From contig JASBSJ010000082.1 in assembly GCA_030148985.1 (NCBI GenBank), positions 1,558 through 65,557 of the forward strand: a DNA stretch of 64,000 bases. The letters run 5' to 3'. Of this stretch, positions 31,268-54,608 are shown piece after piece. The position numbers and the translations under genes are program-made. The stretch comes from Sphingopyxis sp. (GTDB taxonomy: Bacteria; Pseudomonadota; Alphaproteobacteria; Sphingomonadales; Sphingomonadaceae). The stretch's first letter is position 1, and each line of letters starts with the position of its first letter. The notes beneath the pieces were generated by a model, which was not told the origin of the DNA, made no database searches, and saw nothing but the letters and a program-made list of their open reading frames with translations.

Positions 31268-31310
31268 AAAAGTCTCGTCCCAGATGTTCTTGTTTCTGCT
31301 CAACGCCGCC

Positions 31311-31386
31311 TGACAACCTTGACAGGAATTTCCCAAAAAATGCCGCCGAACCGCATGATGATAAACATCGTTTGACAACGTTGACA
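31311..31386. promoter_or_regulatory. Two LacI-type operators in the divergent GH3/receptor promoter
   Basis: TGACAACCTTGACA (31311-31324) and TGACAACGTTGACA (31373-31386), close to the LacI-type palindrome TGACAACGTTGTCA. Confidence 0.7.
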
Positions 31387-31523
31387 GAAATATGCAACGA
31401 AAAGTCGTGCACGGTTTCTGCCGGACGCTTCCGCCGGATGCCGATTCGCCGGCTGGCTTGCCCGTGCACGAGAAAAGAAATCTATGGCCCGCACATCAAG
31501 ATGCGGCTTGGGAGGGTTTGGAA

Positions 31524-34502: not shown

Positions 34503-34519
34503 CGCCAGTCATCCCCCCG

Positions 34520-34556
34520 CGTAGCGGCCCTTTTAGCGAAGGGCCGCTACGTTTTT
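34520..34556 (+). terminator. Intrinsic terminator after the receptor
   Basis: 13-bp stem CGTAGCGGCCCTT/AAGGGCCGCTACG followed by TTTTT. Confidence 0.8.
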
Positions 34557-34589
34557 CTGCCGTCTGGAGAGCGTGAAAGAGGTCAGCCA

Positions 34590-37441: not shown

Positions 37442-37451
37442 AGCCGTTGGC

Positions 37452-38474
37452 CTAGGCGGGCGGCGGTGCGGCGCTGAGCCGTTCGACCAGTTTATGCGAA
37501 TGAATGACCATCGGGCCGGGCTCTTCGCCCGCCAGATCGCGCAGCAGCATGTCGGCGGCGGTCTTTGCCATTTCGACGATCGGCTGCTGGATGGTTGTGA
37601 GGCGCGGCCACACCACGCGGGCGATTTCGGAATCGTCAAACCCGACGACGGTCAGATCGGCGGGTACGTCGAACCCAAGCTCGCGCGCCGCCGACATCGC
37701 CCCCACCGCCATATCATCATTCTGCGCCAAAATTGCGGTAGGCCGCAGCTTGCGCGACAGCAGCCGCTTGGTCGCTTCATATCCCGATTCAAAGCTGAAA
37801 TCGCCGGTCTCGACCAATTCGGGCTGGCGCGGCAGGTCATGGCCGTCGAACGCCTGGTGATAGCCGATCAGGCGCTGACCGCTGGCCGCATGGGCCGGGT
37901 CGCCCATGATGATCGCGATGGCCCGGTGACCGAGGCCGATGACCAGCTCGGCAATTTCGCGCGCGGCGGCGATATCGTCCATCCCCGTCGCCAGCCCGAC
38001 ATCCAGCAACGATTGGGGTGCGATGCGGGCAAAGGGAATATTTGCATCGGTAAGCCCCGCGATAATGTCGGGATGGTCGGACGCGGGCGGCGCAAGGATA
38101 ACGCCGTCCAGGGCGGCCGAGCGGACCAGGCCGACGACTTCGAGCGGGCGGTCCATCACCGATTCCACGGGCAGCACGATCAGGCGATACCGTTCGCCGT
38201 GCAGCCGCTCGAGCGCGCCGCGCTGCAGCTCGACGACATAGCTCGGGCTGGGCTTTTCATAGATCAGGCCGATCAGATAGGACTGGCGACGCACCAACCC
38301 CTGCGCGAGGACATTGGGATGATAGTTGAGCTCCTTGGCCGCCTTGAGCACCTTTTTGCGCAGCGTCGGCGTGATATGCGGCTCGTTGTTAAAGACCCGC
38401 GACACGCTTTTCGGAGACACCGACGCCAGCCGGGCGACGTCGATGATCGTTGCGCGCTTTTCTCCCCGAGCCAT
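37452..38474 (-). CDS. LacI family transcriptional regulator
   Basis: ATIIDVARLASVSPKSVSRVFN HTH, LNYHPN, NDDMAVGA, VVGFDD, LTTIQQP. ATG 38474 is preferred over TTG 38510. Confidence 0.94.
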   Translation of the reverse strand: MARGEKRATIIDVARLASVSPKSVSRVFNNEPHITPTLRKKVLKAAKELNYHPNVLAQGLVRRQSYLIGLIYEKPSPSYVVELQRGALERLHGERYRLIVLPVESVMDRPLEVVGLVRSAALDGVILAPPASDHPDIIAGLTDANIPFARIAPQSLLDVGLATGMDDIAAAREIAELVIGLGHRAIAIIMGDPAHAASGQRLIGYHQAFDGHDLPRQPELVETGDFSFESGYEATKRLLSRKLRPTAILAQNDDMAVGAMSAARELGFDVPADLTVVGFDDSEIARVVWPRLTTIQQPIVEMAKTAADMLLRDLAGEEPGPMVIHSHKLVERLSAAPPPA

Positions 38475-38700
38475 AACAGTCTCGGTGCCGACATTGTCCT
38501 TCGTTGTCAATCATACGCCGAAAATCTCAACCCTATTAAATCCTCGCTGCCAGGCGATTGCCTGGCCGCAGTTTGATCTTCACGGCGAAGCCCAAAAACC
38601 GGGCCAGTTCCTCGCACGGCTGCGCACTGGCAAAAAGGCGGATTGATAGAACCGACGCCATCCGCTCAATCTTACCGTCCATGTTGAAAGGACGATCCCG

Positions 38701-39505: not shown

Positions 39506-39771
39506 TCCGCCGCCGGGCGAATCGTACCGCCGGACACTCATGTCAGACTCTCGGGCCGCGCCAGGACATTGATCGCCTCCAGCCGGGCCGAGATTATCTT
39601 AGCGCTGCGTGAGCCTATCGCGCTGAGCCGATCGCGCGCTGGCATCATGCGCGATAAATGCCGCTTGGCTCGGCAGCTTTGGGCCCCCGATCCGCTATTC
39701 AACCGATCACCGACCAATTCCATCGCTGCCCTTCGCGCGCGGCAGCGGGCCGAGCAAAACCTCTTGGCATT

Positions 39772-39793
39772 TTTGTTATATATCTATATCAAA
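39772..39793. promoter_or_regulatory. Putative GntR operator, copy 1
   Basis: TTTGTTATA-TATC-TATATCAAA upstream of the CoA-transferase. Confidence 0.75.
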
Positions 39794-39835: not shown

Positions 39836-41020
39836 ATGGATGAACAGGCGCTGCCGCTTGCCGGCATCAGGATCATTGAATTCTCCCACATGGTGATGGG
39901 GCCGGCGGTCGGCGTGATCCTGGCCGATCTGGGTGCGGACGTTATCAAGGTCGAACCGATCGGCGGCGATCAGACCCGGCGCCTGCTGGGGTCGGGCGCG
40001 GGCTATTTCCCGATGTTCAACCGGAACAAGCGCAGCATCTGCCTTGACCTCAAAAGCGCAAAAGGGCTCGACGCCGCGCGCCGTCTGACCAGCAAGGCGG
40101 ACATCGTGATCGAAAATTTCCGTCCCGGCACGCTCGACCGGCTCGGCTTGGGCTACGACGCGCTGCGCGCGATCAACGAACGGCTGATCTATTGTTCGGC
40201 CAAGGGTTTTCTCCCCGGTCCCTATGAACATCGCACCGCGCTGGACGAGGTCACGCAGATGATGGGCGGCCTCGCCTATATGACGGGGCCGCCGGGCCGT
40301 CCGCTGCGCGCCGGATCGTCGGTCATCGACATCACCGGCGGCATGTTCGGGGTGATCGGCATCCTCGCCGCGCTCGAACGACGCCACCGCACCGGCCAGG
40401 GGGGAGAGGTCAAATGCTCGCTCTACGAAACCACGGCTTTCCTCGTCGGCCAGCATATGGCGCAAAAGGCGGTGACCGGACAGGCGGCGGCGCCGATGCC
40501 GGTGCGGATTTCGGCGTGGGCGATCTACGACGTGTTCGAAACCGCCAATGCCGACGAACAGCTTTTTGTCGGCGTGGTCAGCGATAGCCAGTGGCAGGCC
40601 TTTTGCCGCGCCTTCGGGTTTGACGCGCTCGCCGCCGACCCGGCCTATGCGACCAATAATCAGCGGGTGATGGCGCGCGACACGCTGCTGCCGCTGGTCC
40701 GCGCGCGGTTCGAAGCGATGTCGCGGGCGGATCTGGTGGCAAAGCTCGAAACGATCGGCCTGCCGTTCGCCGCGATCGTGCGGCCCGAGGATCTGTTCGA
40801 CGACCCGCATCTGGTCGCGGGCAACGGGCTGGTCGATGTCACCATTCCGGGGGGCGAGGCGACGCGCCTTCCCGCGCTGCCGATCGCATTCGACGACCAG
40901 CGCCCCGCGCTTCGCCACGACATCCCGACCATCGATCAGGACGGGGCCGACATTCTGCGCGAAATCGGCTTTGATGAAGCGGACATCGCCGAACTGACGC
41001 ACGCCGCGGTTGCCGGATGA
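39836..41020 (+). CDS. Class III (CaiB/BaiF) CoA-transferase
   Basis: PLAGIRIIE, LADLGADVIKVEP, NRNKRS, ENFRPG, catalytic D in SVIDITGG. Confidence 0.94.
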   Translation: MDEQALPLAGIRIIEFSHMVMGPAVGVILADLGADVIKVEPIGGDQTRRLLGSGAGYFPMFNRNKRSICLDLKSAKGLDAARRLTSKADIVIENFRPGTLDRLGLGYDALRAINERLIYCSAKGFLPGPYEHRTALDEVTQMMGGLAYMTGPPGRPLRAGSSVIDITGGMFGVIGILAALERRHRTGQGGEVKCSLYETTAFLVGQHMAQKAVTGQAAAPMPVRISAWAIYDVFETANADEQLFVGVVSDSQWQAFCRAFGFDALAADPAYATNNQRVMARDTLLPLVRARFEAMSRADLVAKLETIGLPFAAIVRPEDLFDDPHLVAGNGLVDVTIPGGEATRLPALPIAFDDQRPALRHDIPTIDQDGADILREIGFDEADIAELTHAAVAG

Positions 41021-42426
41021 CGCCGCGAACCGCTTTCGAAAAGATCTGGGCCGATCATCTGGTGGCGGATCTCGGCGACGGCACCGGGTTGCTGCTGATC
41101 GACCGCATTCTGCTCCACGAACGCACCGGCGGCGTCGCGCTGAACAGCCTCGCCGACGCGGGCCGGACCGTGGCGGCGCCGGAGCAGGTCTTTGCGACGA
41201 TGGATCATGTCGTCGATACGCGGACCGGCCGTACCGACGCCACCCTGATGCCCACGGGAACCCGGTTCATCGCGGCAACCCGCGCCGCCGCCCGCGCCGC
41301 GGGGCTGACGCTGTTCGATCTGGATGACCCGCGTCAGGGGATCGTCCATGTCATCTCGCCCGAACTGGCGATCGTTCTGCCGGGGCTCACGCTGGTCTGT
41401 CCCGACAGCCATACCTGCAGCCAGGGCGCACTCGGCGCGCTTGCGTGGGGGATCGGTTCGACCGAGGCCGAACATGCGCTGGCGACCAATACACTGCGCG
41501 TCGGCAAGCCCAGGACGATGCGGGTCACCGTCACCGGCCGACTGGGCACGGGGGTCACCGCCAAGGATCTGGCGCTGCACCTGCTCGATCGGTTCGGCTC
41601 TGCGGGCGCGCAGGGTCATGTCGTCGAATATGCCGGCGAAGCGGTCAGCGCGCTCGATGTCGAGGCACGGCTGACCCTGTGCAACATGGCGACCGAATTC
41701 TCGGCCTTCAGCGCCTTTATCGCCCCCGACGAGGTGGCGTTCGACTATCTGAAGGGTCGCGCCTATGCACCGGACGGCGCGGAGTGGGAGCGCGCCGTCG
41801 AGAACTGGCGCGGCCTCGTTAGCGATCCGGGCGCGGTGTTCGACGCGGAGCTGACAATCGATGCCGCCGATGTCGCGCCGATGGTGAGCTGGGGGACCAG
41901 CCCGCAACAGGCGGTGCCGCTGGGCCGTCCGGTGCCGCATCACAGCGCGGTCGCCGGCCGCGACACGCGCGAAGCTTATGACCGCGCGCTCGACTATATG
42001 GGACTTACGGCCGGTCAGGCGATCGAGGGGCTGCCGATCGACGCCGCGTTTATCGGTTCCTGCACCAACAGCCGGCTGTCCGACCTGCGCCGCGCCGCGG
42101 CGATCCTGAAGGGCCGCCGCGTCGCCGATGGCGTGAAGGCGATCTGCGTGCCGGGATCGACAATGGTCAAGGCCGCCGCGGAGGCAGAGGGGCTCGACCG
42201 CATCTTTCGCGACGCGGGGTTCGAATGGCGCGAGTCCGGCTGTTCGATGTGTTTCTTCGCGGGCGGTGAGAGTTTTGGGACGCAGGAGCGTATCATCAGT
42301 TCGACCAACCGCAATTTCGAAAGCCGCCAGGGCCCCGGCACGCGAACCCATCTTGCCTCGCCCGAAACCGTCGCGGCGTCGGCGGTCGCGGGCCGTATCG
42401 CCGATCCGCGCAGGACCGGCGCATGA
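41017..42426 (+). CDS. LeuC/DmdA-like Fe-S hydro-lyase, large subunit
   Basis: QGIVHV, DSHT, CNM, IGSCTN, GCSMC, STNRNFESRQG. Confidence 0.9.
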   Translation: MTPRTAFEKIWADHLVADLGDGTGLLLIDRILLHERTGGVALNSLADAGRTVAAPEQVFATMDHVVDTRTGRTDATLMPTGTRFIAATRAAARAAGLTLFDLDDPRQGIVHVISPELAIVLPGLTLVCPDSHTCSQGALGALAWGIGSTEAEHALATNTLRVGKPRTMRVTVTGRLGTGVTAKDLALHLLDRFGSAGAQGHVVEYAGEAVSALDVEARLTLCNMATEFSAFSAFIAPDEVAFDYLKGRAYAPDGAEWERAVENWRGLVSDPGAVFDAELTIDAADVAPMVSWGTSPQQAVPLGRPVPHHSAVAGRDTREAYDRALDYMGLTAGQAIEGLPIDAAFIGSCTNSRLSDLRRAAAILKGRRVADGVKAICVPGSTMVKAAAEAEGLDRIFRDAGFEWRESGCSMCFFAGGESFGTQERIISSTNRNFESRQGPGTRTHLASPETVAASAVAGRIADPRRTGA

Positions 42427-43013
42427 CCCCGTTCACCACCCTTACCGCAATCGCCGCGCCGCTGATCCGCGACAATATCGATACCGACGCGATCATCCCC
42501 TCGCGCGAGATGAAGTCGGTCGGAAAGACCGGGCTTGCCGACGGGCTGTTCGCCGGGTGGCGCTACACCGCGATCGGATCGCGCGAGCCGGACCCGTCGT
42601 TCATCCTCAACGATCCCCGCTACGCCGAAGCGCAGATCCTGCTCGCCGGGGCCAATTTCGGCTGCGGTTCCAGCCGCGAACATGCCGCCTGGGCGCTCGC
42701 CGAATATGGTTTCCGGGCGATCGTCGCGGCGTCCTTCAATCCGATCTTTCGTGGAAATTGCGTGCGCAACGGCATCGTCCCGGTCGAAATCGACGCGACG
42801 CAGATTGACGCCGACGGACCGATCACGATCGATCTTCCCCGCCAGACGCTGACGAGTGCCTCGGGACAACACATCGCCTTTGCGATCGACGCGGAGGCCA
42901 AGGCGATGCTGATCGGCGGGCTGGACGCGATCGACATGACCCTTGCGCGCGCTGCAGAGATTGCGCGCTTTCGCGACGCCGACCGCAACCGGCGCCCCTG
43001 GGCCTATCTCTAA
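42423..43013 (+). CDS. LeuD/DmdB-like hydro-lyase, small subunit
   Basis: NIDTDAIIP, NFGCGSSREHA, GLDAI; ATGA coupling to the large subunit. Confidence 0.92.
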   Translation: MTPFTTLTAIAAPLIRDNIDTDAIIPSREMKSVGKTGLADGLFAGWRYTAIGSREPDPSFILNDPRYAEAQILLAGANFGCGSSREHAAWALAEYGFRAIVAASFNPIFRGNCVRNGIVPVEIDATQIDADGPITIDLPRQTLTSASGQHIAFAIDAEAKAMLIGGLDAIDMTLARAAEIARFRDADRNRRPWAYL

Positions 43014-43019
43014 AAGAAG

Positions 43020-43041
43020 GCGGGCCGCCGAAGCGGCCCGC
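43020..43041. terminator. Hairpin between convergent operons
   Basis: GCGGGCCGC-CGAA-GCGGCCCGC. Confidence 0.6.
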
Positions 43042-43076: not shown

Positions 43077-44204
43077 CTATTCGTGCGGCTCGTATCGCGG
43101 CACGTCATAATCATATTTGCGCCACTCGCCGTTGATATATTCAATGCCCGTCTTGTAGCTGCAGTCGGTGACATAGGTCGCCCAAAGCCGCGTGCCGGTA
43201 CGCACCAGCGTCCAGCCCCAATTGGCCGTGCCGTTGCCCTTTTTCAGATTTCCGTCGCCGTCGCGTTCGCCCGGGGGCGCCTGGGCGACGGTCCCGTGCC
43301 CGACGCCGGCCGCGCGCCAGAAATAGCCGCGCGTCCCGCGCTTATAGGTGGACACGCCTTGCTCGACGCATTCGCCGCCATAGACGGAGCGCGTGGGGCC
43401 GCGTTCGTCGCTCGTGGCGACGCGGGTGCCTTCGGGAATATAATATTCCTCAAAGCTCGGATGGACCTCGGCGCCGCCGCCGAAATTGCCGGGCTTCGAA
43501 CTCGGCGGGGCCGGAATGCTGGACACGAAGGTCATCCAGGTCATTTCACCGGTGTCGGGATCCTTGCGCATCAGATTGTGCAGATAGCCGGGGAAGTTGC
43601 CGCCGGTGCGATAGGCCGGAAACGGCTCGTCGATATACCAGGCTTCCTTGTAGCGGTTCCAGTCGCGGACACGCGCGTGGGTGCGCGCGCCGCGCTTGCC
43701 CTTGGATGCGACGACGAACTTCGGCGGCCCCTTGAACCATTGCAGCAGCACCGCGCCCTGTCGCGACGTCACCTGGCCGCGAAACATGCCGGCCGGGATA
43801 TAGCTGTAGGAATATTTGCTGAGCTTTTCGTCGCCGATGGTCATATCGCCGTCCAGAACGACGATCTCGTTATCGACCTCGTCATATCCGGGGGGAAGGC
43901 GCCAGCCCGCGGGGACATAGGTAATCTGCGCGACCGCATCCATGCTGGGCGATTCGCTCAGCAATCGGCGATAGAGGCCCGGGGCGAAACCCGGCGCCAC
44001 AAAAGGCTCCCAGCCCACGAACTCGATATTGGGGATGTTGTGCATCAGCCCCGGACGGCCTTCAACCTCATAGCCCTTTTCGGGCACCGGGAACGGCGGC
44101 GCCTGACTGACCGTAGGCGGGCCATAGGATTGTGCGAGCACGGGGGCCGCCAGGGCGGTGAGACCGGCCGACAAAGCAAGGGTCAGACAGGATTGGCGCG
44201 ACAT
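43077..44204 (-). CDS. Secreted bicupin-like protein (DUF4437-like), paralog 3
   Basis: Signal peptide ending VLA, AAGGAGG RBS, two cupin-like halves, strong similarity to 45206-46315. Confidence 0.7.
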   Translation of the reverse strand: MSRQSCLTLALSAGLTALAAPVLAQSYGPPTVSQAPPFPVPEKGYEVEGRPGLMHNIPNIEFVGWEPFVAPGFAPGLYRRLLSESPSMDAVAQITYVPAGWRLPPGYDEVDNEIVVLDGDMTIGDEKLSKYSYSYIPAGMFRGQVTSRQGAVLLQWFKGPPKFVVASKGKRGARTHARVRDWNRYKEAWYIDEPFPAYRTGGNFPGYLHNLMRKDPDTGEMTWMTFVSSIPAPPSSKPGNFGGGAEVHPSFEEYYIPEGTRVATSDERGPTRSVYGGECVEQGVSTYKRGTRGYFWRAAGVGHGTVAQAPPGERDGDGNLKKGNGTANWGWTLVRTGTRLWATYVTDCSYKTGIEYINGEWRKYDYDVPRYEPHE

Positions 44205-44218
44205 GGTCATCCTCCTTC

Positions 44219-45151
44219 TCACTTCGCCTGCGCCGAAGGCTCGGCGCATGAATCGCTATAGCTTTTCCACGAACCGGGCCCCCTGCGGTAAAGCCAAACG
44301 GAATAGCTGTCGGAATATTGGCTGAGCCCGCCGTGGGCGATGCCCGCGGGGCGGAAGAAATAGCCATCCGGGGCATAGGTTCCGGCCACCTGTCCTTGCG
44401 GCAGGCATTCGGCGATCGTCATATCGCCGGCGAGCATATAGCCTTCTTCCCAACCCTTGCTGGTCGCCCACAGCGGCAGGTCGCCTTCGCCGCTCATCAC
44501 CGGATAACCGCCCGGCGCGGTTGCGATCCAGGTCACTTCGCCGGTCGCCGGGTCGGAGCGGAGCATTTTTACATGCACCGGCGAGTTCGTCATGATCGGC
44601 TCGTCGCGGAACTTGGGCAGGACGCTTGGTGTCGTGGTCGGCACGTCGTGATAACCAATCCCGTCGATCGCGCCCGGCTTGGCGTCGGGGCGCGACGTTG
44701 CGCTCGCGACATAATCGGGCGCTCCGCTCCAGAAGAACAGGACGGTCGCGCCTTCCTTGGTGCCAAAGCTGTGCGCGGTGCCGGCCGGGTAATAGGCATA
44801 GGCATAACGGCCCATCGGCTTGTCGCCGATGCTCATCCCGCCGTCGACCACGAACATCTCGAGATCGGCGCTATGATAGCCGGAGGGCTGCGTCCAGCCG
44901 GCCGGCAGCGTGACGAGCAGCGTCCGCGCGCCGGTCTTGTCGTCAAAGCTCAGCAGCTTGAATTCGACGGGCGGCAGGCCGGTAAAGATCAGCGGGCGCA
45001 GGTGCAGGTTGCGCGGTGCCACGAAGCCGACAAACTCGCTCGACCGATCGCGCGACTGGGGGACGCGGATGTCCTGAGCCAGTGCGCCGGTTCCTAGCAG
45101 CAACGCGCCGCACAGTAACAGGCCTCTTCGCAGTCTTTTGCTTGTCGGCAT
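44219..45151 (-). CDS. Secreted bicupin-like protein (DUF4437-like), paralog 2
   Basis: Signal peptide ending ALA; KLLSFDDKTGARTLLV, GYHSADLEMFVVDG, YYPAGTAH, WEEGYMLAGD, YFFRPAGIAHG. Confidence 0.75.
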   Translation of the reverse strand: MPTSKRLRRGLLLCGALLLGTGALAQDIRVPQSRDRSSEFVGFVAPRNLHLRPLIFTGLPPVEFKLLSFDDKTGARTLLVTLPAGWTQPSGYHSADLEMFVVDGGMSIGDKPMGRYAYAYYPAGTAHSFGTKEGATVLFFWSGAPDYVASATSRPDAKPGAIDGIGYHDVPTTTPSVLPKFRDEPIMTNSPVHVKMLRSDPATGEVTWIATAPGGYPVMSGEGDLPLWATSKGWEEGYMLAGDMTIAECLPQGQVAGTYAPDGYFFRPAGIAHGGLSQYSDSYSVWLYRRGPGSWKSYSDSCAEPSAQAK

Positions 45152-45205
45152 TGTCAGCTCCCCTTGTTTCGATGGCTTCGGATGGTGGGTATCTCGCGCC
45201 CCGCG

Positions 45206-46315
45206 CTACGGCTTCACCCGGTATCGCGGCACATTGTAATCATATTTTTCCCAACCCTTTCGGGTGTATTCGAGCCCGGTTTTATAGCTGCAGTCGGTGA
45301 CATAGGTGGCCCACAGCGACGTTCCCGTCCGGACCAGCGATACCGAATAGCCGGGCGTGCCGGGCGAGGTTCCGTGCGAACCGCCATGCGCGACGCCGCC
45401 GGGGCGCCACCAATAGGTGCCGTTGCCGTAGGTAACTGGGGCCTCACCCTGTTCGAGGCACTCGCCGATCACCGTGTCATGCGTCTTTTCGAGGAAATAA
45501 TATTCCTCGAAGCTGGGATGCACTTCATAACCGCCGCCGAAATTGCCCGGTCTTCCGCTGGCGGCCGCCGGAATGCTCGCGCCGAAGCTCATCCAGGTCA
45601 TCTCGCCCGAATCGGGATCCTGGCGCAGGAGTTTGTGCAGCGCGCCCGGGAAATTTCCGCCGGTGCGATAGGCCGGGAACGGCTCGTCGATATACCATGC
45701 GGCGGCGAAATGGTTCCAGTCGCGAACGCGCGCATGTTCGCGCGCGCCCTTCTTGCTCTTCGTCGCGGCGATGAATTTGGGTGATCCCTTGAACCATTGC
45801 AGCAACACCGCGCCCTGCCGCGACCGTACGGGGCCGCGCACCACGCCCGCCGGAACATAGCTGTAGGAATATTTGCTCAGTCTCTCGTCGCCGATCGCCA
45901 GATCGCCATCAAGGACGAGGATTTCGTTGTCGACCTCGTCATATCCCCTCGGCTGGGTCCAGCCTGCGGGCACATAGGTAATCTGTGCGACGGCGCCCAT
46001 GCTGGGCGACTCGCTCAGGTGGCGGCGCAGCAACCCTTTCGGAAAGCCCGGCGCGGCAAAGGGCTGCCATTCCAGCTTGGTGGTATCGTAATGGAGGACG
46101 AATCCCGAGCCGGGCGGCCCCGGACGGCCCTCGACCGCATAGCCGTCGTCGGGCACTGGAAAAGGCGGCCTCTGATCGGTGGACGGCGGCCCCTCGGTCT
46201 GGGCCGCCGCGGGCACCAACGCCATCGCGGCGCAGCAAGCCGGCAGGATCGTCCACAATGCGGCACCACGCGATGCCGCGCCGCCAGTCGCTCCCGCTCG
46301 GCCCGCCGCCCGCAT
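45206..46315 (-). CDS. Secreted bicupin-like protein (DUF4437-like), paralog 1
   Basis: Start overlaps the receptor stop; signal peptide ending AAA; EVHPSFEEYYFL and YWWRPGGVAHG. Confidence 0.7.
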   Translation of the reverse strand: MRAAGRAGATGGAASRGAALWTILPACCAAMALVPAAAQTEGPPSTDQRPPFPVPDDGYAVEGRPGPPGSGFVLHYDTTKLEWQPFAAPGFPKGLLRRHLSESPSMGAVAQITYVPAGWTQPRGYDEVDNEILVLDGDLAIGDERLSKYSYSYVPAGVVRGPVRSRQGAVLLQWFKGSPKFIAATKSKKGAREHARVRDWNHFAAAWYIDEPFPAYRTGGNFPGALHKLLRQDPDSGEMTWMSFGASIPAAASGRPGNFGGGYEVHPSFEEYYFLEKTHDTVIGECLEQGEAPVTYGNGTYWWRPGGVAHGGSHGTSPGTPGYSVSLVRTGTSLWATYVTDCSYKTGLEYTRKGWEKYDYNVPRYRVKP

Positions 46316-48528
46316 CAGAAGGAATATCCGACGCGGAACATGACCTGGCGCGGTTCGCCGGGATAGCCGGTCACCGCCGGCTGCACCGGGTTGGCGCTCA
46401 GCAAACCGGCGACCAGATAGCGCTTGTTGGCAAGATTGCGTCCTTCGACCGACAAGCTCCAGTGATCATCGTCGCTGTGCCAGCCGACCGAGGCATTGAA
46501 AAGGTCCAGCGGGGCGGTCTGAACCAGATCGGTCTGGTTGGAGATCGTGTTATATACTTTGGACGTGTGATCCCAGTTGGCGCCGATCGACAGCGAGCCC
46601 CAGCCATCGGCCAGCGTTGGCGAATAGCGGAAGCCAAGGCTGATTTTCGCCTTGGGCAAGCCCTTGATCTCATTTCCCGTACAATCGACCCAGACGCCGA
46701 ACTGGTTCGCACAGCTGAAGCTCTTGGTATATTTGCCGTCGTTGAACGCCATGTTGCCATAGAGTTCAAGATCGTCGGTCACCCGCAAGTTCGGTTCGAG
46801 CTCAAGGCCCCACACGCGGGCGGCACCCGCGTTGAGCGTCACGATGAACGCGGCGCCGGGGATGATCGTGCTCAGCTGCAGATCGCTGTAATCCGCTACA
46901 TAGCCCGTTGCATTCAGCCGAAAACCGATGCTGGGGAAGTTCATTTTGGCACCCAGTTCGTAACTGTCGACGAACTCGGCACCATAGGGTGTCGGGACCA
47001 GCTGAGCAGTGATCGGATCGCGCGAGTTGAAGCCCCCGCTGCGCGTGCCTTTGGTCCATGAGGCATAGGTGAACAGATTGTCGTTGATCTCCCAGTTCAC
47101 GCCCAGCTTGGGCGTGACCGAGGAGAAAGTGGAGCGCCCCTCCTGCTCGCCGGCCGCAGACCCGATCGTCAGCGCATAATAGTTGGTCGTCTCGCGGGTG
47201 TAGCGCAGGCCGCCCAACACGCTGACTCCGCCGCCGATCGTGTAGGTCGCCTGGGCAAAGATTGCGGGCGCCTCGACCTTGTTGGCCGCATCGTCGGTCT
47301 GCGCGGTCCCCGCCGCACCCTGCTGCGTGCCTTTCTCGGTGAAATAATAGACGCCGGCGACAGCTTTAAGCCTGTCGCCCGTGTAGATGAGGTTCACTTC
47401 TTGCGTGAACCATTCGCTGTCGAACTGCACGCGGTTGGCATTGGCGACGACCAGTCGTCCGCCATTGGCTGCGATACGCGCCGGCGACAGGAAGGTGTCG
47501 TTACCCAGGCTCTCCTGATTCAGTCGGCCATAGCCGGTGATCGAGCCGATCTCGAGGTCGTCGGTGATCGCATAGGTTGCGTTGAGACTGGCGCCGCGCT
47601 GATAGATGCGCTGATAGAGGTTGGCGAAAACCTCATTGACCGTCAGGTCGCGGTCGGGGGTTGCATAGGGATCGGTCACGCCGATCGGCGCGATCAGCGG
47701 GATGGGGATGTTGGAATCCGAACGATCCTGCATCGCATAGGCTGAAAGCTCGAATGTCAGCTCGGGGGTCGGTTCGAACAGCAGCTTCAGACGCTGGGCC
47801 GAACGGTCCAGATCGCCGATCCGATCATCATACTCGATACCGTAAACGAACCCGTCGCGCTTGCGGAAAAGCCCGCTGACCGAGAATGACAGCATGTCTT
47901 CGATGATCGGCCCGCTGAGATAGGCTTTGGCCTCGACCGCCTTATAGTTGCCCACTGCCACCTGCGCCGCGCCGGTCCAGTCATAGGACGGCCGCTTGGT
48001 CACCAGCTTGATCGCGCCGCCCGAGGTGTTGCGACCATAGAGCGTTCCTTGCGGACCGCGCAGGAACTCGACCCGCTCGACATCGAAGAAATCGAAGAAG
48101 GAGCCGTTGGGCCGGGGCTGAATGACGTTGTCGATATACACGCCGACCGTGCCGTTCGCGCGAATACCACCCGTTTCGGTACCGGCGCCGCGCACGACGA
48201 TCTTCATCTGCGACGACCCCGCCGTTGCCTGCGACAGCGTGATGCCCGGAACCTGATTGGCGATATCGCGAACGTCGCGAACCTGCCGCTCTTGCAGCAC
48301 ACCCTCGCCCAGCGCCGTCACCGAGATGGGCGTGGTCCGCACCGTGCCGCCATAGCGCTCGGCGGTGACGACGATTTCCCCGTCGTCCTGTGCATCCTCC
48401 GCGATCATCGGTTCGGTCGCCTGGCTGTCCGGCGCCTCCTGAGCCCAGGCGGGCCCGGCCATCGCGGCGGAAGCCAGAAGCGCAGCGAGCAGGAGTGCGC
48501 GCGGTGTAGGCTGGGACAGTTGCGTCAT
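46315..48528 (-). CDS. TonB-dependent receptor (module 4)
   Basis: EIVVTAER, VERVEFLRGPQGTLYGRNTSGGAI, terminal YSF. Confidence 0.95.
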   Translation of the reverse strand: MTQLSQPTPRALLLAALLASAAMAGPAWAQEAPDSQATEPMIAEDAQDDGEIVVTAERYGGTVRTTPISVTALGEGVLQERQVRDVRDIANQVPGITLSQATAGSSQMKIVVRGAGTETGGIRANGTVGVYIDNVIQPRPNGSFFDFFDVERVEFLRGPQGTLYGRNTSGGAIKLVTKRPSYDWTGAAQVAVGNYKAVEAKAYLSGPIIEDMLSFSVSGLFRKRDGFVYGIEYDDRIGDLDRSAQRLKLLFEPTPELTFELSAYAMQDRSDSNIPIPLIAPIGVTDPYATPDRDLTVNEVFANLYQRIYQRGASLNATYAITDDLEIGSITGYGRLNQESLGNDTFLSPARIAANGGRLVVANANRVQFDSEWFTQEVNLIYTGDRLKAVAGVYYFTEKGTQQGAAGTAQTDDAANKVEAPAIFAQATYTIGGGVSVLGGLRYTRETTNYYALTIGSAAGEQEGRSTFSSVTPKLGVNWEINDNLFTYASWTKGTRSGGFNSRDPITAQLVPTPYGAEFVDSYELGAKMNFPSIGFRLNATGYVADYSDLQLSTIIPGAAFIVTLNAGAARVWGLELEPNLRVTDDLELYGNMAFNDGKYTKSFSCANQFGVWVDCTGNEIKGLPKAKISLGFRYSPTLADGWGSLSIGANWDHTSKVYNTISNQTDLVQTAPLDLFNASVGWHSDDDHWSLSVEGRNLANKRYLVAGLLSANPVQPAVTGYPGEPRQVMFRVGYSF

Positions 48529-48645: not shown

Positions 48646-48716
48646 TTTGTTATGCATTCATATCAAATCACGAGTCGGCCCGCTCGGCAAGTGATTTGTT
48701 ATAGATTTATGATGAT
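48646..48716. promoter_or_regulatory. Putative GntR operators, copies 2 and 3
   Basis: TTTGTTATG-CATT-CATATCAAA (48646-48667) and TTTGTTATA-GATT-TATGATGAT (48695-48716). Confidence 0.7.
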
Positions 48717-48782: not shown

Positions 48783-50108
48783 TCAGCCCGGATCGGCGCG
48801 CCGATTGACAAGCGCGGCAAGTGCGCCCGACAGCGCGAGCGGGATGGCGAAGCACAGGAAGACGATCCACAGCGGCAACTGCTGTCCAAGCAGGAAACCG
48901 CCGAGCAACGGCCCGATCACCGATCCGCCGCGACCGATGCCGATCGCCCAACCGATCCCCGAACTGCGGACTTCGGTTGGGTAGATCTGCGCCGCCAACG
49001 AATAGAAGCCGCTGAACCCGCCCTGCACCGCAAGTCCCATGCCGACCGCGACCCCCAGCACCGCGACCAGCGGCATCGGCTGGCTGAACACCACCAGCAA
49101 CACCGCGCCGGCCAGCATATAGGTGCGGATCAGCCAGCCGATGTCGCGTTTGGTCGCCAGCCAGCCAATGCTGGTCGTCCCGATAATCCCGCCGACGTTG
49201 AAGACCGATCCGGCCCACAGCGAATTGGCCGCGCTGAGCCCCGCTTCCGACGCCAGGCGCGGGATCCAGCTGGTCACGAAATAGAGCACCAGATAGCCGA
49301 GGAAGATCGACAACCACAAAATGAGCGTCGATTTCCACCGTTCGCCCGCGAACAAATGCCCCAGCTTCGGAACGGCACTACGACTGCGCGGCGGCGGCAG
49401 GCTGTCCAGTTGCGGCAAACGGAGGCGGACCCGCAGCGCATTAATCTTGGCCAGCGCGCCGACGGGCTGGCGGTTCTGGAGAAAGTCGAGCGACTCTGGC
49501 AGGAGCATGAAGGCAAAAGGCAGCACCACTGCGCTGACCACCGCTGTGCCCAGCAAGGTCGCTTGCCAGCCAAATTGCGGGATCGACCAGATCGATACCA
49601 GGCCGGTCAGTACCGCGCCAATCGGATAACCCGCCTGAAAACAGCCGATCGCGATACTGCGCTTGCCTGGCGGCGCATATTCGCTCGCCAACGCGGCGAC
49701 GCTGGCAAGCAAGGTGCCGATACCTAGGCCAGTCAGAAAGCGGAATCCGATAAAGGCGGGAATCGTCTGGACCAGACCCGTACCGAATGCGCCGATCGTG
49801 ATTACCACCAGCGCGCCGAGCACGACCGGACGCCGCCCGATTCCGTCGGCCAGCGGCGCGATCAGGATCGAACCCAGCATCATGCCGACCAGTCCGGCGC
49901 TGAAGATCACCCCCAACACCTCGAAACTGACCCCCCAGTCCTCAGCCATTGCGGGAGCGATGTAGGAGATTATCAGCACATCCATGCCATCAAGCATGTT
50001 GATCACAGTGCAGATTGCGACCACCATGATCTGAATAGGGGCCCAGCTCGCGGCGCCGGTCGGTGCTGCTTGAAGGTCGCCTGTCGTGCCGGTTGCCGCC
50101 ATTCTCAT
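48783..50108 (-). CDS. MFS transporter, aromatic acid:H+ symporter (AAHS)-like
   Basis: NMLDGMD, LADGIGRRP, RFLTGLGIG, ASEYAP, IYPTEVRSSGIGWAIGIGRGG. Confidence 0.9.
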   Translation of the reverse strand: MRMAATGTTGDLQAAPTGAASWAPIQIMVVAICTVINMLDGMDVLIISYIAPAMAEDWGVSFEVLGVIFSAGLVGMMLGSILIAPLADGIGRRPVVLGALVVITIGAFGTGLVQTIPAFIGFRFLTGLGIGTLLASVAALASEYAPPGKRSIAIGCFQAGYPIGAVLTGLVSIWSIPQFGWQATLLGTAVVSAVVLPFAFMLLPESLDFLQNRQPVGALAKINALRVRLRLPQLDSLPPPRSRSAVPKLGHLFAGERWKSTLILWLSIFLGYLVLYFVTSWIPRLASEAGLSAANSLWAGSVFNVGGIIGTTSIGWLATKRDIGWLIRTYMLAGAVLLVVFSQPMPLVAVLGVAVGMGLAVQGGFSGFYSLAAQIYPTEVRSSGIGWAIGIGRGGSVIGPLLGGFLLGQQLPLWIVFLCFAIPLALSGALAALVNRRADPG

Positions 50109-50163
50109 GTCCCCTGCTGCTGCCGAAGGAGATATTACGCGGCGATGACGAAGCGGCAAGTTA

Positions 50164-50185
50164 TTTGTTATAGATTTATAACTTT
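50164..50185. promoter_or_regulatory. Putative GntR operator, copy 4
   Basis: TTTGTTATA-GATT-TATAACTTT in the divergent MFS/GntR promoter. Confidence 0.7.
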
Positions 50186-50314: not shown

Positions 50315-51088
50315 ATGATCAGCGGCAACCGGGAATTATCCAGCGTCGATCGCAAGACCGCCGTTCCCCTTTATCATCAGATTTTCGTGCAGCTGCGCGA
50401 TGAAATAGTTTCGGGCAGCCGCCCGTACGGCTCGCTTGTTCCCACCGAACAGGAATTATCGGACAGCTTCGGTGTATCGCGGATCACCGCGCGCCGCGCG
50501 CTGGACGAGTTGGCGCTACAACATTTCGTCGAGCGCAAGCGCCGCGTCGGCACGCGCGTCATTTATGACCTGCCGGTGCGGCCGATTGAGGCCGATATTG
50601 GCAAGGCCGTCGATTCGCTCGTGACCTTTGGCCGCAAGACCAAAGTGACTGTGCTCGAACTGACGCGCGAGGACGTGCACGATCCAGTCGCCTCGCTGCT
50701 CGGCGTCTCATCGGGAACGCGTGTCCTGCGCGCGGTGCGTCTGCGCTGGCTCGATGGCGAGCCGCTGGGGTTGACGATCGCCCATGTGCCAGAAGCGCTC
50801 AGCTTCGCAATCACCGAAAAGAGCCTGAGGCAAACTCCGATCCTCAACCTGGTTCAGCAATCGGGTCGCGAGTTTGGGGATGCGGCGCAGACGATTGCGG
50901 CGGTTTCGGCCGATCCGGCGATGGCGGCCGCGCTCAAGATCGACTCGATGGCGCCCTTGTTGCGGATCACCCGCGCGTTTCGCGACAAGGGTGGCGAACC
51001 GATGCTGCTGACGCAGGCTTTTTATCGCGCAGATCGGTACCAGATGCGCTTCGACCTGCAATCGAGCACGCTCCACGCCGAAGTCTGA
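50315..51088 (+). CDS. GntR family regulator, HutC/UTRA subfamily
   Basis: PLYHQI, VPTEQELSDSFGVSRITARRALDEL HTH, UTRA-type C-terminus (YRADRY). Confidence 0.93.
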   Translation: MISGNRELSSVDRKTAVPLYHQIFVQLRDEIVSGSRPYGSLVPTEQELSDSFGVSRITARRALDELALQHFVERKRRVGTRVIYDLPVRPIEADIGKAVDSLVTFGRKTKVTVLELTREDVHDPVASLLGVSSGTRVLRAVRLRWLDGEPLGLTIAHVPEALSFAITEKSLRQTPILNLVQQSGREFGDAAQTIAAVSADPAMAAALKIDSMAPLLRITRAFRDKGGEPMLLTQAFYRADRYQMRFDLQSSTLHAEV

Positions 51089-51137
51089 GCCGCAAAAAAT
51101 CGGTCGGACACCCTTGCCATTTCATGCGCTTCAGTTA

Positions 51138-51159
51138 TTTGTTATATAAATAGTACAAA
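51138..51159. promoter_or_regulatory. Putative GntR operator, copy 5
   Basis: TTTGTTATA-TAAA-TAGTACAAA directly before the GAGGAG RBS of the lyase. Confidence 0.75.
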
Positions 51160-51174: not shown

Positions 51175-52137
51175 GTGGCCGATCCGATGGACCATATCGA
51201 CATATTGGTGAGCGAGGTCGGTCCGCGCGACGGGCTGCAGAGCATCGCCACCATCATGTCGCTGGACGCCAAAAAGGCGTGGATCGACGCCGAGGCTGCC
51301 GCCGGTGTCCGCGAGATCGAGGTGGGCAGCTTCGTTCCCGCCAAGCTGCTGCCGCAGCTGGCCGATACCGCCGAACTGGTCGCCCATGCCCGAACCATTC
51401 CGGGCCTGACCGTCGCGGTATTGGTTCCCAACGCCAAAGGAGCGGAAGCGGCGATTCGGGCCGGCGCGCACAAGATCACCCTACCGCTTTCCGTCTCCGA
51501 AACGCACAGTCTCGCCAACCTGCGACGCTCGCACGAACAGGTTATCGACGAGGCGGTGACCATCGCCAATCTAATCCGCGCATTGCCTGCGGCCGATCGA
51601 CCGTATTTCGAAGGCAGCCTGTCGACGGCGTTCGGCTGCACGCTGGAGGGGCCGATTCCCGACGCCCAGATTGCCCGTCTCGCCGCGACGCTGATGGATG
51701 CAGGCTGCGACGAGGTCGGGCTATCGGACACGACGGGCTATGCCGATCCGCGCGCAGTGAAGCATCTCATCCGGCTGGTGCGCAGCGTCGTCGGCGACGA
51801 TGCGCTGACCGGCATCCATCTGCACAACACGCGCGGCCTGGGGCTCGCCAATGCGCTCGCGGCGCTCGAATGCGGCCTGACCACGCTCGATGCGTCGCTG
51901 GGCGGCCTCGGCGGATGCCCGTTCGCGCCCGGCGCGAGCGGCAATATTGTGACCGAAGATCTGGTGTTCATGCTCGAGGCGATGGGTCTGCGCACCGGCA
52001 TCGACATCGACCGCCTGCTGGCGGTGCGCGAGATCGTCACCGCGGCGCTGCCGCACGAGCAAATGTACGGCTTCCTTCCCGATGCGAAACTGCCGCTTGG
52101 CTTCAAGCCTGCCCACAGCCTGGAGAATGTCGGATGA
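51175..52137 (+). CDS. HMG-CoA lyase family protein
   Basis: EVGPRDGLQ, AFGC, LSDTTG, HLHNTRG, GGLGGCPFAPGASGN. Confidence 0.94.
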   Translation: MADPMDHIDILVSEVGPRDGLQSIATIMSLDAKKAWIDAEAAAGVREIEVGSFVPAKLLPQLADTAELVAHARTIPGLTVAVLVPNAKGAEAAIRAGAHKITLPLSVSETHSLANLRRSHEQVIDEAVTIANLIRALPAADRPYFEGSLSTAFGCTLEGPIPDAQIARLAATLMDAGCDEVGLSDTTGYADPRAVKHLIRLVRSVVGDDALTGIHLHNTRGLGLANALAALECGLTTLDASLGGLGGCPFAPGASGNIVTEDLVFMLEAMGLRTGIDIDRLLAVREIVTAALPHEQMYGFLPDAKLPLGFKPAHSLENVG

Positions 52138-52826
52138 GCGAAATCGTCGGAACGCGGATGGTCAGCGACGGCAAGACCGCGCGGCAAATCTTCGAAGAGG
52201 TGATGGCCAATCCGGCCCGCGCCAAGTTCGGCTTCGGCAGCAAGCTCGCCGTGGTCAATGTCGATCTCCAGAACGCTTATACGCGGATCGATCGCTACAA
52301 GACTGCTTACGAAACCGATCCGCGCCAGATCGAACATATCAATAGGATCTCCGCCCTTGCGCGCGCGAAGGCGATGCCGGTGATCTGGACCCATGTTGCT
52401 TATGCCGAGGACGCAAGCGATGCCGGCATATGGGGCACGCGCACGAACACGCCCGACAGCCTGCAGAACATCAAGTACGACAGCGACCGCCACGCTTTCG
52501 ACGAACGCTGCGACATCGCCCCCGGCGACGCGGTCTATACCAAGCGGATGCCTTCGCCGTTCTTCGAGACCCCGCTCCAGAGCCTGCTAGTGTGGCACAA
52601 GGTGGATACCGTCGTCATCACCGGCGGCTCCACCTCGGGCTGCGTCCGCGCCGCCGCAGTGGACAGCCTCAGCCGCGGCTATCGCACGATCGTGCCGATC
52701 GAGACCTGCGCCGACAAGCATGAGAGCTATCATTTCGCCAATCTGACCGACCTCCAGCTGAAATATGCGGATGTCGAACCGGTGCAGACCGTTATCGACT
52801 GGCTCGAGGCCCAGACCGATGCGTGA
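52134..52826 (+). CDS. Isochorismatase-family cysteine amidase (maleamate amidohydrolase / N-carbamoylsarcosine amidase-like)
   Basis: Catalytic D (NVDLQ), K (TKRMPS) and C (GGSTSGCVRA); NLTDLQLKYADV. Confidence 0.88.
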   Translation: MSEIVGTRMVSDGKTARQIFEEVMANPARAKFGFGSKLAVVNVDLQNAYTRIDRYKTAYETDPRQIEHINRISALARAKAMPVIWTHVAYAEDASDAGIWGTRTNTPDSLQNIKYDSDRHAFDERCDIAPGDAVYTKRMPSPFFETPLQSLLVWHKVDTVVITGGSTSGCVRAAAVDSLSRGYRTIVPIETCADKHESYHFANLTDLQLKYADVEPVQTVIDWLEAQTDA

Positions 52827-53694
52827 GGGCGAGAAAGATCCCGGCCTCTATGATTTCCGCCCTTATCGTGGGCGCCCGAAGCTGGCCTGGCCCGATGGCA
52901 AGCAGGTTGCGGTCTGGGTCTCGCCCAATATCGAATTCTACGAACTCGATCCGCCCGCCAATCCCCATCGCAAGAGCTGGCCCAGGCCCCACCCGGACGT
53001 CGTCGGCTACAGCCACCGCGATTACGGAAACCGCGTCGGCCATTGGCGTCTTGCAGAGGCAATGTCGCGGCACGGCTTCCCGGGGTCGGTCAGCCTGTCG
53101 GTGGCGATGTGCCAACATCTGCCGGAGGTGGTTGCCGATGCCGCCGCGCGCGGCTGGGAGTTTTTCAGCCACGGAATCTACAACACCCGCTACAGTTACG
53201 GGATGGACGAGGCCCAGGAACGCGCGCTGATCGAGGATTCGATCCGCACCGTTCGCGAGGCGACCGGGCAGACGATCAAGGGCTGGCTCGCCCCCGCGCT
53301 GACCCACACGCCGCGCACGCTGGATCTGATCGCCGAATATGGCCTGTCCTATACCTGCGACCTCTATCACGACGACCAGCCGGGCGAGGTGCATGTGAAG
53401 TCGGGGCGTTTGATCTCGATGCCCTACAGCCTGGAGGTCAACGACCACTACGGCTTCTTCGTCTACAACATGTCGCCGCGCGACTATGCCGATACGCTGA
53501 TCCGGCAATATCAGCGGCTGGCCGACGAAGGCGGCACGGTGATGTGCATTCCGCTCCACGCCTATCTGATCGGCCAGCCGCATCGCATCGGTCCGTTCGA
53601 GGAGGTGCTCCGGCACATTGCCGCCGACGGCCGCGCCTGGATTACCCGGAGCGGCGACATCGCCGATCATTATATGCAGCAGGTGGCGGCATGA
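52819..53694 (+). CDS. Polysaccharide deacetylase-fold hydrolase (PuuE-like), copy 1
   Basis: WPDGKQVAVWV, RDYGNRVG, WEFFSHG, KGWLAP, HDDQP, LHAYLIGQPHRI. Confidence 0.88.
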   Translation: MREGEKDPGLYDFRPYRGRPKLAWPDGKQVAVWVSPNIEFYELDPPANPHRKSWPRPHPDVVGYSHRDYGNRVGHWRLAEAMSRHGFPGSVSLSVAMCQHLPEVVADAAARGWEFFSHGIYNTRYSYGMDEAQERALIEDSIRTVREATGQTIKGWLAPALTHTPRTLDLIAEYGLSYTCDLYHDDQPGEVHVKSGRLISMPYSLEVNDHYGFFVYNMSPRDYADTLIRQYQRLADEGGTVMCIPLHAYLIGQPHRIGPFEEVLRHIAADGRAWITRSGDIADHYMQQVAA

Positions 53695-54608
53695 GCCTCG
53701 ATCCGGCCTATCTCGACTATCCGCTGCGCAAGCGCGGCATGGATCACGGCTATTACCCCTATTCCAACCTGTTCGAACGGCCGCCGCTCGCCTGGCCATC
53801 GGGGAAGGCCGTTGCGGTAGCGATCGTCGTCAATCTCGAGTGGTTTCCGATCCTGCCCGCTGACAAGCCGTTTCGCGCGCCGGGGCATATGGTCACGCCC
53901 TATCCCGATTATCGGCATTATACCGCGCGCGAATATGGCACGCGGGTCGGCTTCTACCGGATGCTCGATGCGTTCGCGAAAGTCGGCGCGCGGGTCTCGG
54001 TCGCGGCCAATGGCGCGATCGCCGAACGCTATCCGCAGATCATCGCCGATATTCTTGCCGATGGTCATGAAATCGTGGCGCATTCGACCGACATGAACGG
54101 CACCATCGCTTCGGGGCTGCCCGAGGACGAGGAACGCGCGCTGATCGCCGCCGCGCTCGACGCGTTGGAACGGGTCACAGGGATGCGGCCGCGCGGGTGG
54201 ATGTCGATCGCGCGTTCACAATCATTCAACACCCCGCGCCTGCTCGCCGAGGCGGGGCTGGCCTATATGGCCGACTGGGTGAACGACGAATTGCCTTATC
54301 GCTTCGAAACCGGCGCAGGCGCCATCGTCAATGTGCCGGTCAATCACGAGCTTTCCGACCGGCAGATCGTGACCGTCCAGCAGCAGTCGGCCGATTCCTA
54401 TGTCGAACAGATGATGGACGCATACGCGCTCATAAAGAGCGAAGCGTCGGCGCTCGGCGCCAGCCGCATGTTGCCGTTGAACGTCACGCCCTATGTAATG
54501 GGTCTGCCTTATCGGATCGGCGCGCTCGAGCGGTTGCTAGGTTGGTTGGCCAATCAGGACGATGCCGCTTTTCATAGCCTCAGCGAGATCGGAGCTGCCC
54601 TGCGCTGA
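53691..54608 (+). CDS. Polysaccharide deacetylase-fold hydrolase (PuuE-like), copy 2
   Basis: WPSGKAVAV, REYGTRVG, HEIVAHS, RGWMS, NDELPY, TPYVMGLPYRI; ATGA coupling. Confidence 0.88.
   Translation: MSLDPAYLDYPLRKRGMDHGYYPYSNLFERPPLAWPSGKAVAVAIVVNLEWFPILPADKPFRAPGHMVTPYPDYRHYTAREYGTRVGFYRMLDAFAKVGARVSVAANGAIAERYPQIIADILADGHEIVAHSTDMNGTIASGLPEDEERALIAAALDALERVTGMRPRGWMSIARSQSFNTPRLLAEAGLAYMADWVNDELPYRFETGAGAIVNVPVNHELSDRQIVTVQQQSADSYVEQMMDAYALIKSEASALGASRMLPLNVTPYVMGLPYRIGALERLLGWLANQDDAAFHSLSEIGAALR

Follow-up and report, generated by a model that had tools for sequence, protein, structure and literature searches.

What does a bacterium gain from three consecutive genes for predicted secreted bicupins lying directly behind a TonB-dependent receptor gene? 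The question is raised by a 64,000-bp stretch of a Sphingopyxis sp. genome (assembly GCA_030148985.1, contig JASBSJ010000082.1, positions 1,558 to 65,557; hereafter the window), in which the bicupins A, B and A' are encoded consecutively on the minus strand. Comparative analysis revealed that B and A constitute a real, conserved and uncharacterised pair, predicted to be secreted, which fronts an orphan imide-catabolic regulon that probably consumes tetrapyrrole fragments. In particular, we place at roughly 0.45 the probability that A, B and A' are periplasmic metalloenzymes that produce haematinic acid or other small substituted maleimides from TonB-imported, tetrapyrrole-derived pyrrole fragments. 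This reading is built on gene order, motifs, reciprocal site loss, the invariant adjacency of B and A, an operator-like motif and co-location with a lower catabolic module, all of them direct observations. The elements of the cupin unit are the following.

46315..48528, minus strand: TonB-dependent receptor, first gene of the unit, scoring under the cut-off of all named NCBIfam families.
45206..46315, minus strand: bicupin A, 369 amino acids (aa), short-loop type, with a predicted signal peptide; its start overlaps the stop of the TonB receptor gene (TGATG).
44219..45151, minus strand: bicupin B, 310 aa, with a predicted signal peptide.
43077..44204, minus strand: bicupin A', 375 aa, long-loop type, with a predicted signal peptide, an intact C-terminal site (C-site), D/R at the N-terminal site (N-site) and two loop insertions.
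43020..43041, minus strand: terminator-like 9-bp all-GC hairpin, separating A' from a convergent leuD-like gene.

Since the start of A overlaps the receptor stop, the A-B and B-A' gaps measure 54 and 14 bp, and the 9-bp GC hairpin follows A', the receptor and the three cupins were read as a single minus-strand unit, in agreement with the coupling to a TonB receptor proposed in the initial annotation. The genes and motifs listed there were all recovered on the minus strand (GECVEQG/AECLPQG/GECLEQG, TDCSY/SDSCA, EVHPSFEE, GYDEVDNE and GYHSADLE...PAGTAH), as were the two additional loops of A', insertions of about 11 and 13 aa in its C-terminal cupin. A' sits right after B, the slot occupied by A-type genes in two-gene loci. 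A sigma-70 promoter scan stayed near chance (7 found, 3.9±2.0 expected), and the sequencing runs examined yielded low-depth contigs only, uninformative as to expression.

The candidate metal sites were located by cupin motifs 1 and 2 in an alignment of 65 A-type sequences (A, A' and 63 of 87 matches, the 24 omitted being mainly near-duplicates and fragments), in one of 55 B-type sequences (B, 52 of 64 matches and two proteins from a distant-relative search) and in 105 distant representatives of at least 230 aa, taken from 140. The C-site of A consists of E264/H266/E271/H310 (E264-x-H266-x4-E271 and G299-x5-P305-x-G-x2-H310) and its N-site is degenerate (D126, R160); B has an N-site of H93/E98/H127 (H93-x4-E98 and P122-x-G-x2-H127) and a degenerate C-site (A229, S231, E236, H273). 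It was correctly noted before that the outer two proteins keep the motif only in the C-terminal cupin and the middle one only in the N-terminal cupin. The C-site itself was likewise rightly placed, the H..EE..H ligand pattern given for it less so: because the equivalent of E270 is variable in B-type sequences (Q in 31, E in 15 of 55) while that of E271 is invariant in both types, the site is best read as E/H/E/H. Accepting these assignments, the predicted metal sites are of the 2-His/2-Glu kind at the C-site and of the 2-His/1-Glu kind at the N-site. E264, H266, E270, E271, R304, H310, C286 and C342 are invariant in all 65 A-type sequences, in which the N-site His position is occupied by H (39), D (20) or Y (4) and the distal position by H (42) or R (18). 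In the 55 B-type sequences, H93, E98 and H127 are conserved in 54, 54 and 53, respectively; the first two C-site positions mostly lack E and H, and H273 is kept in 44. The distant relatives, mostly unsecreted, have the C-site as their conserved one (E/H/E/H plus Arg in 77, 94, 99, 92 and 84 of 105), with an N-site His in 14.

The conserved cysteine pair recognised earlier (Cys286/Cys342 in A, Cys249/Cys302 in B) recurs in 65/65 A-type sequences and in 55/55 and 54/55 B-type sequences, respectively, and together with the signal-like N-termini it distinguishes the A/B group from the distant relatives. A crude signal-peptide heuristic was positive for all three window proteins, as the initial annotation had it, and for 60/65 A-type, 45/55 B-type and 10/105 distant sequences; its value is lessened by two false positives among eight cytoplasmic controls. 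Export is also consistent with the near-invariance of the Cys pair and with the helices that the models of A and B show at their N-termini, and periplasmic location of A, B and A' is predicted as probable.

All three window cupins exceed the 24-bit gathering cut-off of the Pfam family DUF4437 (PF14499), with 34.7, 61.8 and 26.7 bits, a match anticipated by the initial annotation; core members score 263-333 bits and have an HIH N-site, the trio being peripheral, and A, B and A' thus score as distant members of the family. For the ChrR-like Cupin_7 family (PF12973, cut-off 27 bits), proposed alongside, B lies above the threshold (45.8) and A and A' below it (26.8 and 19.2). No NCBIfam family matches A, B or A', their named relatives are Sphingopyxis proteins of 90-98% identity, and an ESM Atlas search returned only Cupin_7/DUF4437 clusters. 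The cupin fold foreseen earlier was found in the AlphaFold models of A (pLDDT 86.4) and B (84.2), which are bicupins with two double-stranded beta-helix domains; the models cover A and B only, A' being about 63-68% identical to A. Foldseek and VIA matches placed 2QDR first for both A (Z 26.7, root-mean-square deviation 2.8, 257 aligned) and B (Z 25.6, 2.2, 239 aligned), followed by quercetinases, ureidoglycine aminohydrolase and oxalate decarboxylase at Z 15-20 with identity below 20%. The entry 2QDR, Nostoc Npun_F5605, is a DUF4437 (PF14499) bicupin titled 'putative dioxygenase' and the top match in both sequence and structure, yet it is only 21-23% identical to the window cupins and functionally uncharacterised. 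Transfer of a dioxygenase annotation from 2QDR was rejected, this protein being uncharacterised and devoid of the ligands.

The dioxygenase class suggested earlier did not fare better against the quercetin 2,3-dioxygenases (B. subtilis YxaG 2H0V, Aspergillus 1GQG), which share the bicupin fold of A and B (Z 17.5-20.1, identity 10-16%). Their H-x-H-x4-E…H motif is replaced in the window cupins by E-x-H-x4-E…H or G-x-H-x4-E…H, and in place of the 3-His/1-Glu site the first His is Glu in the C-site (65/65) and Gly in the N-site (54/55). Quercetinase, secreted in fungi, is nevertheless a precedent for a secreted, reductant-free cupin that cleaves C=C bonds. (S)-Ureidoglycine aminohydrolase (4E2Q; Z 17.8-19.4, identity 12-13%) also shares the fold, and its metal motif begins with E-x-H; to our knowledge, neither this enzyme nor the cupin LumY forms a secreted paralogue pair. 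LumY, presented in excerpted text of PMC12746152 as a cupin hydratase of a cofactor-catabolic pathway, serves as hydratase precedent. The chemistry of the window cupins may be that of a dioxygenase or of a hydratase, both compatible with present evidence.

Across genome and metagenome loci, redundant ones included, B adjoins A in 45/45 A matches, and A follows B in 34 of the 39 B matches with sufficient downstream sequence, the other five being deep tandem B-like pairs. Order and adjacency do not vary across distant lineages. The conserved unit is therefore the B–A pair, which in this lineage has become a trio. It is a rare unit, found in 3 of 121 genomes of the genus. Among 28 distinct pairs, six have all four sites, seven lack only the C-site of B, and eleven show the reciprocal loss seen in the window (ten D/R, one H/Q); two lack only the N-site His of B, one has a B without both sites, and one a truncated B. 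In a quick, midpoint-rooted IQ-TREE run, which gave a long-branch warning, the four-site pairs branch deepest, C-site loss in B marks one clade (SH-aLRT 96-100), and N-site loss in A is nested later (support 96), with two Woeseia sequences retaining the His. The complementary sites of the initial annotation are a real pattern, best described as derived loss, since most A-type sequences have both sites (an N-site His is present in 39/65). The same site is never lost twice (0/28 pairs); for the N-site, double loss was seen in none of 27 complete pairs against about 1.2 expected under independence, and few independent loss events underlie these counts. A statistical claim of complementation was rejected, zero cases being within chance of 1.2.

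These counts bear on how B and A are assembled, a matter that overlaps with the other explanations. That they are separate monomeric or homomeric enzymes catalysing consecutive steps, with neutral decay behind the reciprocal pattern, is an assumption we hold at somewhat under even odds: A keeps its C-site in 28/28 pairs regardless of B, and the missing double loss of the N-site is what few independent events could give by chance. Against it stand the invariant adjacency and order of B and A across distant lineages, and the fact that the dead C-domain of B retains W228, W234, E236, E248, C249 and R267 in 55/55 sequences. The opposite and more specific proposal, unlikely in our estimate, is that B with A or A' forms a periplasmic heteromeric bicupin whose two metal sites were divided by reciprocal loss, and which would cleave propentdyopents, bilirubin oxidation products (BOXes) or longer bilins to haematinic acid and alkyl-methyl-maleimides, as the entry enzyme of tetrapyrrole mineralisation to pyruvate and glutarate.

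The outer genes were initially called close duplicates, which overstates their likeness. A and A' share 219 of 324 aligned residues and are identical at only 61 of 104 four-fold sites; their Pseudoxanthomonas orthologues are closer (70 and 78%) than A is to A' (63%). The identical 23-bp tracts reported at 43156-43178 and 45285-45307 exist and encode the conserved WATYVTDCSY. Judged by these sequences, A and A' diverged long ago as paralogues; a recent duplication and gene conversion were both rejected, given orthologues closer than paralogues and few shared four-fold sites. Loci with all three genes, in the order A-B-A', come from Sphingopyxis, Sphingomonas and Pseudoxanthomonas, and short-loop and long-loop A types are each also found alone with B.

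Several further proteins accompany B–A loci. Secreted proteins of about 350 aa without confident Pfam match recur next to the pair (L028:11100-13233, L034:501-3947, L072:12233-14297 and L062:12166-13257), one of which returned cupin-like ESM Atlas clusters (score 0.94, DUF4437 on 18% of members); secreted vicinal oxygen chelate (VOC)-fold proteins and FAD proteins with Tat-type (twin-arginine translocation) signals also co-occur with these loci.

What the pair may act upon is indicated by its neighbours, a downstream pathway that the initial annotation missed and that points to the substrate. The neighbouring genes and the operator-like sites between them are as follows.

39771..39780: operator-like site with one mismatch, upstream of the CoA-transferase gene.
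39836..41020, plus strand: family III CoA-transferase (family match).
41017..42426, plus strand: LeuC-like hydratase large subunit, PRK12466 type, with four further LeuC-like copies in the genome.
42423..43013, plus strand: LeuD-like hydratase small subunit (family match).
48694..48703: operator-like ATTTGTTATA, upstream of the TonB receptor gene, with a one-mismatch copy at 48645.
48783..50102, minus strand: major facilitator superfamily (MFS) transporter, best match the aromatic acid:H+ symporter family, under cut-off.
50163..50172: operator-like ATTTGTTATA, between the MFS and GntR genes.
50315..51088, plus strand: GntR/UTRA (HutC-type) regulator (family match).
51137..51146: operator-like ATTTGTTATA, upstream of the HMGL-like gene.
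51175..52137, plus strand: CoA-ester lyase resembling 3-hydroxy-3-methylglutaryl-CoA lyase (HMGL; family and structure match).
52134..52826, plus strand: isochorismatase-fold amidase, best Protein Data Bank match 4L07.
52819..53694, plus strand: PuuE-allantoinase-like ring hydrolase 1 (family and structure match).
53691..54608, plus strand: PuuE-allantoinase-like ring hydrolase 2 (family match).

Enzymes of these families open a cyclic imide, remove ammonia, hydrate a substituted maleate and cleave the resulting malate, and 4L07 is presumably a maleamate amidase; the module is thus a probable route from imide through amic acid and substituted maleate to a lyase step. ATTTGTTATA has four exact copies in the 2.94-Mb assembly, three of them at this locus. 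Its core was found again in loci L021, L023, L050 and L130, and was not found in L022, L024, L028, L029, L059 and L072. The sites are predicted to be the operator of the GntR regulator, and the shared motif ties the cupin unit to the lower imide module as one putative regulon.

Of 401 genomes of the order, 75 encode a close orthologue of the amidase; it is usually accompanied by the same module, and the upper genes vary. Two ring-opening sets (the PuuE pair plus amidase, or a cyclic amidohydrolase) and two back ends (HMGL plus CoA-transferase, or an isocitrate lyase (ICL)-family lyase plus glutarate-type CoA-transferase) are seen in all four combinations, which suggests a shared intermediate. 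The three-gene locus of Pseudoxanthomonas contains a cyclic amidohydrolase, a homoaconitase-type LeuCD, an ICL-family lyase, a succinate:glutarate CoA-transferase-like gene (under cut-off) and a glutaryl-CoA dehydrogenase (E 4e-208), the last being a second copy, as another GcdH-like gene lies elsewhere in that genome. A plasmid of B. plantarii carries the same back end (83, 67, 66 and 54% identity), and the KRCGH motif is present in the L022 lyase. By the predicted module chemistry, haematinic acid or its nor-methyl form is the imide from which glutarate and a 2-oxo acid would arise. According to excerpted text of PMC7318184, haematinic acid, propentdyopents and BOXes are natural products of chlorophyll and haem.

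The link to tetrapyrroles comes from other genomes. Locus L148 (G453:C1:853300-873200), from the same order and one of 20 same-order loci fetched for the amidase, encodes orthologues of the window amidase (73%), PuuE pair (64 and 49%), LeuCD (60 and 55%) and HMGL (67%), together with a homologue of red chlorophyll catabolite (RCC) reductase (61.1 bits, cut-off 24.9), two Rieske oxygenases and a TonB receptor. A search for RCC reductase gave one positive genome among 201 of another phylum, and two among 61 of that genome's family. In both cases the neighbours include a Rieske oxygenase, a CoA-transferase sharing about 53% identity with that of the window, and an amidohydrolase sharing 62-64% with that of L022. 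One of these loci also has LeuCD and HMGL, and the second genome has part of the set. In parallel with the plant chlorophyll breakdown by pheophorbide a oxygenase (PAO) and RCC reductase, homologues of RCC reductase and Rieske oxygenases flank the window-type lower module in three other genomes, whereas no RCC reductase was found in the window genome (73% complete) or in the cupin-pair genomes tested. Because the genomes with RCC reductase share the lower module and lack the B–A pair, Rieske/RCC reductase and the cupin pair seem to feed the same lower pathway as alternative entry systems. Overall, the feedstock is likely to be tetrapyrrole fragments, with haematinic acid as the probable intermediate.

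Several results weigh against this interpretation. The family search detects RCC reductase where it is present and found none in 351 sampled genomes of the class, nor in the cupin-pair genomes tried (G000, G476 and those of L022, L028, L030 and L033, several of them incomplete); conversely, no B–A pair was found, at the thresholds used, in the three genomes with RCC reductase and the module. With no genome holding both, the link to the substrate is indirect and runs through the lower module. The chlorophyllase-family score in L148 (38.9 bits) is beaten by that of platelet-activating factor acetylhydrolase (41 bits), leaving this hydrolase ambiguous. No lower-module gene accompanies the pair in the fetched flanks of L025, L027, L052 and L056, and LeuC is present in 7 of 14 close genome loci, several of the others being short contigs. 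The lower module is far commoner (75/401 genomes of the order) than the pair (3/121 genomes of the genus). Finally, the fold neighbours of the cupins include hydrolases, decarboxylases and storage proteins besides dioxygenases, and 2QDR itself lacks His/Glu ligands at the aligned positions.

The lower module also adjoins many different upper genes and pathways, as would be expected if the trio were periplasmic metalloenzymes of the same regulon cleaving another N-heterocycle (a substituted pyridine, a pyridone or a pyrrole natural product) to a substituted maleamate or maleimide. The best structural relatives of the amidase are maleamate amidases of pyridine catabolism, and maleate-isomerase-like and alpha/beta-hydrolase genes lie near the lower module elsewhere. 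We consider this alternative rather unlikely, since the glutarate genes in L022 and L187 and the RCC reductase and Rieske neighbours in three genomes best fit tetrapyrrole rings. That the trio are binding or shuttle proteins, or include a non-catalytic subunit, passing on pigment fragments or metal without chemistry, is distinctly improbable: in its favour are the single degenerate site of each of the three proteins, the many cupin fold neighbours that are not enzymes and the further secreted cupin-like paralogues in loci of other lineages, yet a pure binding role is disfavoured because the inner-membrane transporter is an MFS protein, a type that works without a binding protein, and the metal-ligand positions are invariant or nearly so across 40-90% sequence identity, a constraint that supports the metalloenzyme role originally suggested.

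If A, B and A' do act on tetrapyrrole fragments, the TonB receptor would import oxidised bilin or chlorophyll fragments such as dipyrrinones and BOX-type compounds, and the B–A pair would cleave an exocyclic C=C bond or bridge carbon, either oxidatively or through hydration and retro-aldol reaction. The N-terminal His/Glu/His site would serve in B and the C-terminal Glu/His/Glu/His site in A and A', which probably take differently substituted rings; this cleavage is the weakest step of the scheme. The imide acid might then be taken up by the MFS transporter. Family chemistry suggests that the PuuE-like pair would open the imide, the isochorismatase-fold amidase deamidate it and the LeuCD-type enzyme hydrate the product, and that CoA transfer and HMGL-type cleavage would yield pyruvate plus glutaryl-CoA or another acyl-CoA.

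The enzyme families and logic of the lower module recall those of nicotinate routes (maleamate amidase NicF; DmdAB with 2,3-dimethylmalate lyase), of the cyclic-imide pathway (imidase plus half-amidase) and of (R)-citramalyl-CoA transferase/lyase. Unlike the window, these routes involve no periplasmic bicupin pair or TonB receptor, and window-type genes stay below most equivalog cut-offs for their enzymes. Imidase family membership follows excerpted text of PMC9863593. The riboflavin/lumichrome route was rejected as the pathway, the excerpted text of PMC12746152 mentioning no maleate, isochorismatase or TonB; excerpts of PMC9875883 and PMC8669743 have no bearing on cupins. The literature searched, with supplements and subscription papers outside its scope, contained no paper on this locus, its gene set or its pathway, none using the term DUF4437, and no described bacterial route consuming mono- or dipyrrolic chlorophyll fragments.

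Other clusters were observed in the course of these comparisons. A second RCC-reductase-like gene lies at G453:C1:893439. In L205/L206 (G1613:C6, about 37000-62000), a co-directional run comprises genes for a Rieske oxygenase, a weak bilin-reductase-like protein, a flavin reductase–HMGL fusion, LeuCD, a CoA-transferase, an amidohydrolase, RCC reductase, a monooxygenase and aldehyde dehydrogenases. A widespread sphingomonad cluster around the same lower module (L134-L147) includes an S-adenosylmethionine-dependent methyltransferase-like gene with a small partner, an FAD-linked oxidase, a nitrilase-family protein, DUF1330 proteins and several families without Pfam match; in G156 and G004 it has DUF1838 genes in its vicinity, and DUF1838 plasmid contexts were uninformative. 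The genome of the window has another, separate catabolic cluster, L043/L191 (G000:C83, about 108000-132000), which is also conserved in G201 and G268 and contains three Cupin_7-type genes, hydantoinase/oxoprolinase A and B, HMGL, isochorismatase, two LeuCD sets, CoA-transferase, ICL-family lyase, a HisD-like dehydrogenase, a maleate-isomerase-like gene, a flavin monooxygenase and a TonB receptor. Plasmids pTomTYG65b and pJE1 (L150, L151) carry near-identical mobile clusters with two LeuCD sets, both lyase types and an unsecreted cupin sharing the E-x-H-x4-E C-site motif. Within the window itself, positions 28727-38510 hold a separate carbohydrate-type locus (glycoside hydrolase family 3 (GH3) glycosidase, TonB receptor, tryptophan-halogenase-like gene, MFS sugar transporter and LacI regulator), in which G+C falls to about 57-60%.

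The locus is compact and self-contained, bringing together import, a periplasmic step, a regulator and a lower pathway, and because it is carried by cultured, named strains, Sphingopyxis granuli NBRC 100800 and Pseudoxanthomonas yeongjuensis DSM 18204 among them, the question is directly testable. The pair is a natural series of metal-site loss, from four through three to two sites per pair, useful for studies of subfunctionalisation. Chlorophyll turnover amounts to about 10^12 kg a year, as stated in excerpts of PMC7318184. If the proposed activity proves true, it would provide the first function for a DUF4437-related family and reveal an undescribed bacterial route that feeds on the breakdown fragments of chlorophyll and haem.

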